IMG/VR virus record: IMGVR_UViG_3300014205_000172
Location: 96,001-160,000 of that record
Length of the DNA: 64,000 nt
Direction: 5' to 3' (one strand)
DNA from: a virus
Lineage: Duplodnaviria > Caudoviricetes
Positions 19,988-56,913 of the stretch are shown here, one piece after another. A program made the position numbers and the translations under genes. Under the pieces are notes generated by a model. The model saw only the letters and a program-made list of their open reading frames with translations, searched no databases and had not been told where the DNA came from. The number at the start of each line of letters is the position of its first letter. The stretch's first letter is position 1.

Positions 19988-20047
19988 AAAAAAAAACAGC
20001 ATACACCTCCGGCTAATGCCGGAGGTGTATGTCACTATCTTTTTTTT
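19988..20047. terminator. Bidirectional terminator, CATA...TATG family
   Basis: A9-CAGCATACACCTCCGGC-TAAT-GCCGGAGGTGTATGTC then a T-run; lies between convergent genes. Confidence 0.85.
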
Positions 20048-23812: not shown

Positions 23813-24289
23813 ATGGGTAAGAAGAAAAGTAAAGCGGGGGCGTTTCAGGCACGGGGCACGTCGCCTTTGCAAAATTGTATCCGTAATGAAAAGTCGGTAA
23901 AAGATAGCAGCGTAAAGTTGGATGAATCCATTCGTGACGCTTCACGAATCCTTACTGAACTCCCTAACGGGATGAGAGAACTCAAGGAAAAAGGTCGCGA
24001 GGATAAGATTCCTGACCTGATCGCGCTGAACCGTTCCGCTGCCCGTGACCTGGATTCGTTTGTAACTGAAAAGGTCGGCTTGGATGCTGAGTTGAAAACG
24101 CACGTTCAGACGCGGCCAAAAGAAGCTGCTGAAATGGCCGACTATAACAGCAAAACTCTGAGCATCGGTAACAAGTACGTTACCCTCGGTCATCGCCTGA
24201 TCGGCACTGTTGGTAAGAGTACCGGCCAGATCATTGAAATCCTCACCCCTGTGGATGAGCCTGAAGCTGCTGAAGAGGCCGTTGTTTAA
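23813..24289 (+). CDS. Hypothetical coiled-coil protein
   Basis: 158 aa, GAGGT RBS, coupled to the next gene (TAATG). Confidence 0.8.
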   Translation: MGKKKSKAGAFQARGTSPLQNCIRNEKSVKDSSVKLDESIRDASRILTELPNGMRELKEKGREDKIPDLIALNRSAARDLDSFVTEKVGLDAELKTHVQTRPKEAAEMADYNSKTLSIGNKYVTLGHRLIGTVGKSTGQIIEILTPVDEPEAAEEAVV

Positions 24290-26136
24290 TGAACGAATCG
24301 CCAGATAACCCAAGTACCGAAGAGCCCGCTGAACTCAACACCCCAGCTGAGCTACCTTCCGCCTTCCCAGTAGCGGAAGAAATCCCAACCGCCCCAGTTG
24401 TGCCTTCAGAAGCGGTAGAGATCCCTGCCTCGGCAGCGGTGTTCGCCGAGGCGGATGAATTCATCCCGATTGAAGAACCACTGGTTGAAGAACGTGGTGA
24501 CTTCATTCCCGAAGACGCCCCACCCGCCCCAGCTCCAATCTTGGCCGATGGCGTCAACATCCCAGACGACGGTCCAGAAGAAGTCTATGCTGGCGTCTGG
24601 GACCCAGTGCCGGGCGTAGAAACATCGGCTCCGATTCTGGAACCGATGTCTGACGAACTGCTGAGTAAGTTTGCCCGACACGGCAAAGCCGTTATCACGA
24701 ACATGAACTTGGCTGAAGTCGAGAAACTCGATCAGATTCTTCGATTGCGCATATTCGCTTCTCAGCGTGAGCGTTACTCGAAAATCAACCAGGGTCTGCC
24801 GCGCGATCAGTTCATCCAGTTGGATCTTGACGGGGTGGGTAAGCTCTATATCACCGAACCTGAACAGCAGGCCATGAACCAGGTGGCGCAATATCTTCGA
24901 CAGGTATCATTCAGCCACATTGGTGATATCATCGAAGAAGGTGAAACTGCCACCAACCGCCCACTGGTTGATGACATCCCCATCATGATGGGTTTGGTAC
25001 AACCTGCCAAGAACGGTAACGGCATGATGGCCGTGCGTGATGCGTTGGGCCTGTCCCAGCGTGTCGCATTCCCAATGTGGGGTTCGGGTATTCATGTGCG
25101 GATGATTGCTCCCGGCGCATTGGCGCAGCTGGGTCTGGATACGCAGCTGGGTCAGGAAAAGGTACGGGAGGCAATGGAATCTGCAGGCTACTCACTTGCA
25201 GCGCCAGCGGTGTTCCTGAACCGCGAGTTGGCAGACTTTGCCATCAAGCACTTCCTGAACACCACAGCGGGTACGGTTGACCCCAAAACCCTGAAAAGCA
25301 TCATCACCCTGCTTGACTTCGATCAGATGATCACCAGCATGGCGTTCAGCCTGTTTCCAAAAGGTTTCCCTGTCACTCGTTATTGCACTAACTCTGCACT
25401 TAACTGTGACGGCGAGATCACGGACTTGCTGAACATCAACCGCATGGTCATCGTACTCGACAGCCGTTTGGACGAACACCAAAAACGGTTCATGTCCAAA
25501 CGCAGCGGTCAGCACGACATCAAGACCATCCTGAATTACCAAGCCAAGATGCGGCCTGAAGTTAGCCGTTACATCGACCTGGGTAATGGCGTTCGACTCA
25601 AACTGCGTGTGCCTACATTGGCGCAATACGAGTCGACATCCACAGCGTGGCTCGATAACATGACGGCTGAGTCCAAGCAGCTGATCTCCAGTAATGCTCG
25701 TGAAGAAGATCGTCAGAACTATCTGTTGCGTGCTCAGCAGATATCCACTGTGATGGCCTATGCCTGCTGGGTTGAGGCAGTGGTGCGTCAAAGCGATGAG
25801 CTGGAAGCTGAACCTGAAGTAATTCAGACTCGTCTGTTACCAGAAGGTGCTACGCCAGATCAGCAGTTCGAAGCCGATAAGGAAATCGACGACTTCCTAC
25901 GTGACTTTGCATCGGACCCTGATCTGACCAAGAAGTTCACCGACGCGCTGGAGAAATTCATCGCAGCGATGACTCTGACGACAGTCTGCATTCCAAAAGT
26001 GCATTGTCCGAAGTGTGGTCAGCCAATCGACAAAGACGAAGGTATCAAGTTGGGCCACCCAGCGCTGGTAACGATCAACCCGTCTGAGTTTTTTTTTACC
26101 CTACTCCGCCACAGCATAGCAAGACACAGACCGTAG
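24289..26136 (+). CDS. Putative tail/baseplate assembly chaperone (T4 gp26/gp51-like Cys motifs); frame-0 product of a frameshift locus
   Basis: 615 aa; RYCTNSALNC and CPKCG Cys pairs, LKLRVPTL; ends EFFFTL on a T9 run. Confidence 0.6.
   Translation: MNESPDNPSTEEPAELNTPAELPSAFPVAEEIPTAPVVPSEAVEIPASAAVFAEADEFIPIEEPLVEERGDFIPEDAPPAPAPILADGVNIPDDGPEEVYAGVWDPVPGVETSAPILEPMSDELLSKFARHGKAVITNMNLAEVEKLDQILRLRIFASQRERYSKINQGLPRDQFIQLDLDGVGKLYITEPEQQAMNQVAQYLRQVSFSHIGDIIEEGETATNRPLVDDIPIMMGLVQPAKNGNGMMAVRDALGLSQRVAFPMWGSGIHVRMIAPGALAQLGLDTQLGQEKVREAMESAGYSLAAPAVFLNRELADFAIKHFLNTTAGTVDPKTLKSIITLLDFDQMITSMAFSLFPKGFPVTRYCTNSALNCDGEITDLLNINRMVIVLDSRLDEHQKRFMSKRSGQHDIKTILNYQAKMRPEVSRYIDLGNGVRLKLRVPTLAQYESTSTAWLDNMTAESKQLISSNAREEDRQNYLLRAQQISTVMAYACWVEAVVRQSDELEAEPEVIQTRLLPEGATPDQQFEADKEIDDFLRDFASDPDLTKKFTDALEKFIAAMTLTTVCIPKVHCPKCGQPIDKDEGIKLGHPALVTINPSEFFFTLLRHSIARHRP
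26089..26097 (+). promoter_or_regulatory. Putative -1 ribosomal frameshift (slippery) site T TTT TTT
   Basis: The -1 frame is closed by TGA at 26085-26087, then open from 26088 into ORF 26178..26588. Confidence 0.7.
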
Positions 26137-26177
26137 ATAAAAATACCGGTCTCGTCAAAATCAATCACGTAGTAGCG

Positions 26178-26588
26178 ATGGATTTTGGCGAAGGGATCTC
26201 GCCGTATAAGCCGGGCACTCACACCTACGACATCATCCTTAACACACAGACCGATGACGACCGCACTAAGCGGCTGATTCTTCTGGAAGCCTATGACCAG
26301 ACCTTTGGCTTGTTTGACCATGTGAATGAGGGCTTCAAGCCTGAAAACCAGATGGCCATCATGCGTATGCATCCAGCCGAAGATATGGCAACAGGTAACC
26401 GTCTGCGTGGTTTGATGAGGGAGTTGGTGGCGTGTCGTATTCCTGAGATGACTAACGAACCCCTATCTAAGCTACTTGAGTATCCTTTGGATATCCTTGA
26501 GGAATATTTGGTAGAGGGTCGTAAAGCTCAGAAGCACAACGCGGGGGTAACGGCGAAACTTGAGGCGGAGTTGCAAAAACCAGCATGA
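26178..26588 (+). CDS. Hypothetical protein; probable C-terminal extension made by -1 frameshift
   Basis: 136 aa, no clear SD, frame open back to the T9 site. Confidence 0.7.
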   Translation: MDFGEGISPYKPGTHTYDIILNTQTDDDRTKRLILLEAYDQTFGLFDHVNEGFKPENQMAIMRMHPAEDMATGNRLRGLMRELVACRIPEMTNEPLSKLLEYPLDILEEYLVEGRKAQKHNAGVTAKLEAELQKPA

Positions 26589-26629
26589 ACAGCATACACC
26601 CCCGGCTTAGTGCCGGGGGTGTATGTCGT
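26589..26629. repeat. CATA...TATG hairpin, near-identical to the one at 20000
   Basis: ACAGCATACACCCCCGGC-TTAGT-GCCGGGGGTGTATGTCGT at a convergent junction, no U-tract. Confidence 0.8.
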
Positions 26630-56868: not shown

Positions 56869-56913
56869 ATGTATGGGGTCTTCGGACCCCTACATCCCCT
56901 CTTCTTTTTTTTT
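56869..56913 (+). terminator. Intrinsic terminator
   Basis: ATGTATGGGGTC-TTCG-GACCCCTACAT then T9. Confidence 0.8.

Follow-up and report, generated by a model that had tools for sequence, protein, structure and literature searches.

Phage lambda makes gpG and gpGT, and phage P2 makes gpE and gpE+E′, by a −1 slip that occurs shortly ahead of the upstream stop codon; in both cases a short product is accompanied by a C-terminally extended one, and the downstream segment is not separately initiated. P2 E/E+E′ also uses a T-rich slip site. The slip rate of lambda G/GT is low, and many phage G/GT sites have no stimulatory element. A review of the T4 tail (PMC3004832) counts gp26 and gp51 among the chaperones of hub assembly. 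Here we describe a gene pair with a comparable −1 layout in a 64,000-nucleotide (nt) stretch of DNA from a tailed virus (positions 96,001 to 160,000 of the IMG/VR record IMGVR_UViG_3300014205_000172; this whole stretch is called the window below). Its upstream member belongs to the family of phiKZ gp77 and encodes a protein of 615 amino acids (aa); its downstream member has been read as a separate open reading frame (ORF) of 136 aa. From the sequence evidence we consider it likely that a −1 slip lets the gp77-family gene specify two isoforms, of 615 and 766 aa, which may serve in assembly of the baseplate hub.

Results

The gp77 Locus and Its Two Reading Frames

In a tblastn search with the 615-aa protein, 222 phage records matched, all of them phiKZ-like jumbo phages (PHIKZ077 at E 7e-20), and 1067 homologues of the protein were found. 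By annotated neighbourhood, the orthologues are phiKZ gp77, 201phi2-1 gp136, PhiPA3 gp074 and Goslar_00081. Each is followed by a small ORF (PHIKZ076.4, gp135, gp073 and Goslar_00082, respectively), and the neighbours of the window gene are as in phiKZ, 201phi2-1 and Goslar.

The 615-aa ORF (24289..26136, plus strand) reads GAG (26086) TTT TTT TTT (last codon at 26095–97) ACC, and after this run of nine Ts (T9) there are 12 sense codons and then a TAG at 26134–26136. Past its last TGA, the −1 frame is open (VFFYPTPPQHSK...INHVVA, …FFYPTPPQHSKTQTVDKNTGLVKINHVVA) and leads into the ORF called from ATG 26178 to 26588, with its stop at 26586–26588. The predicted slip product would join 603 and 163 residues into a protein of 766 aa beside the one of 615 aa, with the predicted junction peptide LGHPALVTINPSEFFFYPTPPQHSK in the window phage and FPHLIPIDMLSTFFYFGGLEVK in phiKZ. 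The original prediction, made from the letters of the window and a list of its ORFs, had described a canonical heptamer in T9 at 26089–26097, 12 sense codons ahead of the stop, and a −1 frame with a TGA at 26085–26087 that is then open into 26178..26588. The sequence confirms both; the fusion, given there as about 765 aa, comes to 603 + 163 = 766 aa when computed.

Comparative Evidence for a −1 Frameshift

The comparison set held 33 loci, 24 from named phages (phiKZ, PhiPA3, 201phi2-1, Goslar and SPN3US among them) and nine from metagenomes, including the window. These loci share ancestry, and the P values given below treat them as independent and are thus upper bounds on significance. All 33 loci have their downstream ORF in the −1 frame, even though the distance from the upstream stop to the annotated downstream start runs from a 136-nt overlap to a 219-nt gap. 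Counted from the Phe-Phe (FF) site to the next stop, the −1 frame extends for 154–176 codons (median 163), the 0 frame for 8–44 (median 14) and the +1 frame for 1–106 (median 14). Annotated downstream starts are scattered from −28 to +85 codons around the site, while the length of the −1 extension stays constant.

The site itself carries an in-frame T_TTT_TTY heptamer in 27 of the 33 loci. The run is T5–T8 in 29 of them, usually T7–T8 and T5–T6 in a few; it is T9 in the window and in three metagenomic relatives (L005, L008 and L009). The first Phe codon at the site is TTT in 17/17 loci tested, in genes that otherwise prefer TTC: elsewhere in the same gene the ratio of TTT to TTC is 0:18 in RSL2, 0:14 in Xoo-sp14, 1:16 in DT01 and 4:18 in the window, where all three codons of the T9 site are TTT. 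The product of the per-gene probabilities over the 17 loci gives P ~2e-12 for TTT at the site, if they are independent. The codon before FF ends in T in 14 of these 17 loci (4.3 expected), and the residue that it encodes varies (T, V, L, F, I, A, G, Y, N). At the 20–25% protein identity of the loci, synonymous sites are saturated.

The −1 peptide is conserved as well. Three motifs are family-wide, GH[VI]xxxxFG, L-x-EAYD-x-x-FGI[FY]DH and HP-x-ED, and in phiKZ, Xoo-sp14, DT01, Goslar, Moabite, FLC9 and others the annotated start comes after both GH[VI]xxxxFG and AYD..FGI. In two close pairs, synonymous and nonsynonymous differences (Sd:Nd) in the −1 frame, from the 0-frame stop to the first ATG, number 12:2 (pN/pS, the ratio of nonsynonymous to synonymous divergence per site, 0.05) and 5:1 (0.06). 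Judged by these counts, this interval is under purifying selection in the −1 frame.

Starts and ribosome-binding sites point the same way. Met 26178 lies in the first of the motifs, and the corresponding column in nine relatives holds M, M, I, I, L, V, H, H and P; in L008 and L024 the first 44–48 codons of the extension contain no ATG, GTG or TTG. The energy of the duplex with the anti-Shine–Dalgarno (anti-SD) sequence has a mean of −5.8 kcal/mol at gp77-type starts, −2.6 kcal/mol at annotated downstream starts and −1.8 kcal/mol at random positions. SD strength differs between gp77-type and downstream starts (Wilcoxon p = 5e-4), most of the latter having no SD sequence. The window ATG 26178 has +0.4 kcal/mol and no SD sequence, which agrees with the original description of ORF 26178..26588 as one without a clear SD.

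Together, the results on frame, site, peptide, starts and SD sequences are hard to reconcile with two genes that are each translated independently. The programmed −1 frameshift put forward in the original prediction gains strong support from the alignment of orthologues that it had proposed, in which the FF site and the open −1 frame recur in 33/33 loci with a conserved −1 peptide upstream of the starts, the heptamer recurs in 27, and downstream SD strength is near background. On this comparison, −1 slippage very probably takes place at the locus and, as far as sequence can tell, the two-frame arrangement is ancestral to the nucleus-forming jumbo phages.

Alternative Explanations

Several observations weigh against such a frameshift. 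In six of the 33 loci the heptamer is incomplete at its first X, the site reading G/A_TTT_TTY or CTT_TTT_A. FF is itself a conserved protein feature, present in T4 gp26 as TTC TTT, and part of the T-richness of the site is therefore forced by the protein. No in-frame fusion occurs among the best 150 of the 1067 homologues listed, where no dedicated search for longer homologues was made. We found no convincing conserved stimulatory RNA or shared stem in the 83–86-nt folds past the site of six phages (z −2.1 to +0.2) and no SD-like element upstream at the slip site, so the slip rate is probably low, as for lambda G/GT. Finally, an ATG is available at 26178 in the window, and some independent initiation may occur there. 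One alternative is an arrangement without any recoding, in which two ordinary genes follow each other, the second is translated from ATG 26178 (from non-canonical starts in the relatives), perhaps by re-initiation past the upstream stop, and the T run consists simply of Phe-Phe codons. In its favour, besides the ATG in the window, gene callers find starts in every record, T4 gp26 keeps FF without a frameshift, and a natural fusion is missing from the best homologues. Two ordinary genes, however, would not account for a −1 frame kept in every locus across spacings of −136 to +219 nt, for a constrained and conserved −1 peptide upstream of the starts, or for synonymous-site selection for TTT and for the T before it; and their second start would lie in a column occupied by I, L, V, H or P in relatives, with no SD sequence to serve it. 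We regard this arrangement as highly improbable.

The slip could also belong to transcription. RNA polymerase stuttering on T9/A9 would add one U, and the share of mRNAs with U10 would then carry the 766-aa fusion as one uninterrupted frame, a product identical to that of a ribosomal −1 slip. A run of nine falls in the range where bacterial RNA polymerases slip, as they do at the T9 of Shigella mxiE and in insertion sequence elements, and in the T9 clade a third TTT codon has extended the run from the usual T7–T8. Since T9 is longer than usual for the family, polymerase stuttering could add to ribosomal slippage or, in the T9 clade, replace it. Most relatives, however, have runs of T5–T8, too short for efficient stuttering of known bacterial polymerases, and the conserved feature is a codon-phased heptamer, preceded by a codon ending in T in 14/17 loci. 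Because this heptamer is kept family-wide, including at runs too short for polymerase slippage, the ribosome is favoured as the ancestral mechanism; transcriptional slippage as the source of the fusion seems to us unlikely. A last explanation denies the second frame altogether: some sequencing chemistries are error-prone at homopolymers, and the true sequence could be T10, with one 766-aa ORF, or the gene a recent pseudogene. T9 is, however, common to three relatives from other metagenome assemblies (L005 at 97% identity, L009 at 71% and L008 at 65%), which shows that it did not arise in assembly. The 0-frame tail E-FFF-TLLR-x-x-IA is kept in 11 relatives of 53–95% identity and in the family consensus, and C366, C373, C573, C576, F602, F603 and L605 are near-invariant columns among 148 homologues. 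The conserved tail, the near-invariant F602, F603 and L605 and a confidently modelled C-terminal helix indicate that the 615-aa product is real and exclude a true T10. With the same two-frame layout present in 24 isolate genomes, artefact or decay is hardly credible; the doubt about homopolymer length raised in the original prediction is answered by T9, not T10, in four separate assemblies, and the T10 reading was rejected.

Structure and Proposed Role of the 615-aa Protein

The AlphaFold2 (AF2) model of the 615-aa protein, built with 148 homologues, has a predicted local distance difference test score (pLDDT) of 85.9 and a predicted template modelling score (pTM) of 0.81. Residues 1 to ~100 are disordered in it, residues ~110–615 form a folded mixed alpha/beta core, and the C-terminal helix 598–613 contains FFF. 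The protein has two Cys pairs, Cys366/Cys373 and Cys573/Cys576. Its N-terminus (24289–24590, residues 1 to ~100; pLDDT 43–53) is acidic and Pro/Ala-rich, with a length and sequence that vary greatly even among 60–85% relatives; it has the character of a flexible tether or a docking segment.

The PDB yielded no solved relative: Foldseek with the AF2 model gave no match below E 0.6, VIA-align of the model against 48,161 chains gave helical-hairpin matches only (Z below 7) and a profile search of PDB sequences with the 615-aa family gave none, a result that is not equivalent to a new fold. Pfam returned just weak zinc-ribbon matches at the CPKC motif (E 0.09). Its tail assembly chaperone (TAC) families showed no match up to E 0.1, and such absence from the lists is compatible with a relation. 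A Foldseek search of BFVD, a set of predicted viral structures, places T4-like proteins next after the jumbo-phage orthologues; about a dozen of them, at ranks 20–50 (E 1.7e-4 to 0.3), carry the name of a baseplate hub subunit, assembly protein or chaperone. Those at ranks 20–34 have E up to 0.02, probability 0.99–1.00 and a template modelling (TM) score of 0.44–0.57 on targets of ~226–284 aa, these targets being predicted models, not solved structures, and grouped here by name. The motifs are arranged alike: T4 gp26 has C82/C84, C187-P-E-C190-G and EFFELL and ends …KCPECGKTHAHVIRGLKEFFELL, and the window protein has C366/C373, C573-P-K-C576-G and EFFFTLL and ends …HCPKCGQ…PSEFFFTLLRHSIARHRP. 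The Cys pairs and the C-terminal FF-x-LL stand in the same order in the two proteins and are near-invariant in both alignments.

Sequence profiles did not bear out the link. The hidden Markov model of Pfam PF12322 (T4_baseplate), which matches T4 gp26 at E 9e-64 and T4 gp51 at E 4e-52, has no match to the 615-aa protein or elsewhere in the whole genome up to E 10, and among relatives of the protein it matches 1/19 (E 0.064). Profile–profile alignment by hhalign gave probabilities of 0.5% with a 26-sequence gp26 alignment, 15% with T4 gp26 alone and 9% with gp51, and the aligned pieces are collinear but short. Because the Pfam and hhalign results are below significance, we describe the link to gp26/gp51 as a resemblance at the level of the predicted fold, with distant homology probable, and not as family membership. 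The original prediction had seen in this protein a tail or baseplate assembly chaperone of the G/GT style, to be compared with gp26, gp51 and the TAC families. A likeness to gp26/gp51 holds by predicted fold, through the BFVD matches, and by motif order; it does not extend to Pfam or profile–profile comparison (hhalign 0.5–15%), and the TAC families of Pfam gave no match. A lambda G/GT-type tail assembly chaperone was rejected on size, gene position and the lack of a sequence match.

The paper on the Goslar virion structure reports a T4-like hub and does not name gp81 or gp82, the Goslar homologues, and the 201phi2-1 record marks neighbours as detected by mass spectrometry, but not gp136 or gp135. 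Both fit with a non-virion assembly role, and the two isoforms would then be non-virion assembly factors for the baseplate hub. We give a role of the gp77-family protein in hub assembly about an even chance. T4 codes FF as TTC TTT, and its gene 25, which comes next, is started independently; we therefore see the slip site as a trait of the jumbo phages, added to a protein motif that is older.

T4 gp26 and gp51 (L030:3803-4429, minus strand, and L030:4480-5229, plus strand) both match PF12322 and are thus paralogues; gp51 has ~45 extra C-terminal residues past its counterpart of the FF-x-LL helix. An internal product of T4 gene 26, 26′, is annotated as well, so that T4 makes several related hub-assembly proteins by other means. 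As for the 163-aa −1 extension, Pfam gave no match and its AF2 model has a pLDDT of 52 (12 sequences), a quality that does not allow comparison of folds. The idea that the extension is gp51-like was rejected for lack of evidence (hhalign probability against gp51, 0.2%).

Annotation and Surroundings of the Locus

A frameshift is annotated in none of the 24 named-phage records. The original expectation that the pair would be found annotated as two hypotheticals holds for named-phage records, though not throughout: two records label the gp77-type gene 'putative baseplate hub assembly protein', and in PhiEaH1 (L042, 210-1400) the gp77-type gene, at the start of the record, was left unannotated. 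In the Erwinia phage Simmy50 (L022, 2415-2963) the downstream ORF is annotated from 28 codons before the slip site and overlaps gp77 by 136 nt, and in phiKZ (L011, 2730-2972) it is annotated from 85 codons past the site. The annotated phiKZ ORF, of 80 aa, spans less than half of the conserved −1 domain. A literature search gave no description of a gp77 frameshift and no function for phiKZ gp77; its matches for 'gp77' and 'gp136' are other proteins, numbered in other phages.

The features of the locus are collected in Table 1. The gene pair is flanked on one side by phrog_2962, an RNA polymerase beta-like gene, and by an ORF at the gp79 position (phrog_5038), and on the other by convergent genes without assigned function; the synteny is the same in the named phages. 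The pair does not lie between the tube and tape-measure genes; the original prediction had placed it away from the tape-measure gene. The end of the 158-aa ORF overlaps the next ATG, and so the two genes probably share an operon; the 158-aa ORF has no match in PHROG. The named-phage records likewise have a small ORF directly upstream of the gp77-type gene, and those of 201phi2-1 and PhiPA3 call theirs similar to phiKZ gp78. The GC-rich palindrome past the −1 stop separates the convergent ends of the gp77 operon and a 441-aa minus-strand gene and is retained in L005 (97% relative) with one loop base altered. It was not called in a scan for T-tail terminators, and it is likely a two-way terminator without a T tail that closes the operon.

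Table 1. Features at and around the gp77-family gene (window coordinates).
Feature	Position	Strand	Basis or remark
Upstream ORF, 158 aa	23813..24289	+	At the phiKZ gp78 position (ORF list); end overlaps the ATG of the 615-aa gene
gp77-family gene, 0-frame product of 615 aa	24289..26136	+	phrog_4585, E 1e-71
TGA in the −1 frame	26085..26087	+	Last −1 stop ahead of the open −1 frame (sequence)
T9 run, candidate slippery site	26089..26097	+	Codes for Phe601–603; heptamer T_TTT_TTT at 26091–26097, in phase with the 0 frame
−1 frame extension, 163 aa and stop	26097..26588	+	phrog_12109, E 1e-13 for the last 136 aa; would be joined to residues 1–603
0-frame tail TLLRHSIARHRP and TAG	26098..26136	+	Overlaps the first part of the −1 extension
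ATG	26178..26180	+	ORF-finder start of the 136-aa ORF 26178..26588; sits within a conserved motif, not conserved as a start
GC-rich palindrome ACACCCCCGGC-TTAGT-GCCGGGGGTGT	26596..26622	.	Perfect, 11 bp, loop TTAGT (sequence)

The 0-frame tail overlaps the start of the −1 extension, which makes the stretch 26098..26136 dual-coding. The 13 nt 3′ of the T run (26098–26110, ACCCTACTCCGCC) are identical in relatives with only 65–71% protein identity; this is partly due to dual coding, and the stretch may also have a role at the RNA level. The 237-kb IMG/VR record holds only three A/T runs of length 9 and 20 such runs of at least 7. The rarity of runs of 9, the three TTT codons in a gene that prefers TTC and the T9 kept by three relatives mark the site as no mere chance feature. 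Other long homopolymers in the window are a second T9 at 56905–56913 and an A9/T8 pair ~50 nt apart (19988–19996 and 20040–20047).

Discussion

The site, the two frames and their conservation are direct observations; the occurrence of slippage, its rate and the function are inferred. We propose that most ribosomes would pass T9 and halt at TAG 26134, yielding the 615-aa protein, and that a fraction would slip −1 on U_UUU_UUU (26091–26097), the two Phe tRNAs re-pairing with UUU UUU. Slipped ribosomes would stay in the −1 frame to 26588; their product, of 766 aa, would share residues 1–603 with the shorter protein and end in a different domain of 163 aa. What has been read as a '136-aa gene' would then be mostly or wholly the tail of the 766-aa isoform, and the frameshift would set the isoform ratio, as in lambda G/GT.

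If the shift is true, phiKZ-like genome records mis-annotate a conserved, family-wide gene, and the 'small hypothetical gene' after gp77 is the tail of a second isoform. This bears on phage engineering and on essentiality maps from transposon sequencing (Tn-seq) or CRISPR interference (CRISPRi), which count the two ORFs as independent genes. Baseplate hub assembly would be a first functional handle on a family-wide gene for which we found no described function, and the principle of lambda G/GT would have arisen in an unrelated chaperone family. A wider and more doubtful reading, which we offer tentatively, is that jumbo phages replace T4 gp26 and gp51 with one two-frame gene, in which the shift rate sets the ratio of core-only to core-plus-adaptor protein, the ~160-aa domain, made only by frameshifting, has a new fold and serves to dock a component of the hub or the tape measure, and stuttering in the T9 clade is a second tunable layer. 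Should that be so, phiKZ gp77 would be the first family-wide recoding event described in Chimalliviridae, and G/GT logic would have arisen in tail assembly a second time, independently.

Among its closest counterparts, the phiKZ, 201phi2-1, PhiPA3 and Goslar pairs (phrog_4585 and phrog_12109), the window locus shares synteny, the FF slip site and the −1 extension; it differs in having T9 (FFF) where they have T6–T8, a longer disordered N-terminus and an ATG within the extension. With lambda G/GT and P2 E/E+E′ the common ground is the position of the slip and the pair of products described at the outset, and the gp77 products, like those of G/GT, probably assist assembly in a fixed ratio without becoming part of the virion. 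Unlike them, however, the gp77 proteins show no sequence or fold relation that we could find to lambda G/GT or P2 E. At 615 and 766 aa they are ~4 times larger than the lambda type (~140 and 280 aa), their core has a four-Cys site that lambda G/GT does not have, and their gene adjoins the virion RNA polymerase and head genes, whereas lambda G/GT lies between the tube and tape-measure genes. In T7 and T3 gene 10A/10B and in E. coli dnaX, as proposed for gp77, one gene gives two products in a fixed ratio that differ at the C-terminus; the slippery sequences and protein families are different, and in dnaX the shift shortens the product instead of extending it and is stimulated by a well-defined Shine–Dalgarno sequence and hairpin, neither of which was found at gp77.

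With T4 gp26 and gp51 the gp77 proteins share the order of their landmarks: an early Cys pair is followed by a [KR]-x-P strand, then by another Cys pair and last by the C-terminal FF-x-LL helix, the later pair being CP-x-CG in gp26 and the equivalent of FF-x-LL being VF-K-LL in gp51. Both groups are absent from the virion protein lists compared. The gp77 core is ~2 times the length of gp26 or gp51 and carries an N-terminal addition of 100–250 aa, and where T4 has two separate paralogues and an internal-start gp26′, with no slip site, the jumbo phages have one gene in two frames. Taken together, the locus is best described, on present sequences and models, as G/GT logic in a different, gp26/gp51-like family of putative assembly factors that is conserved across Chimalliviridae.

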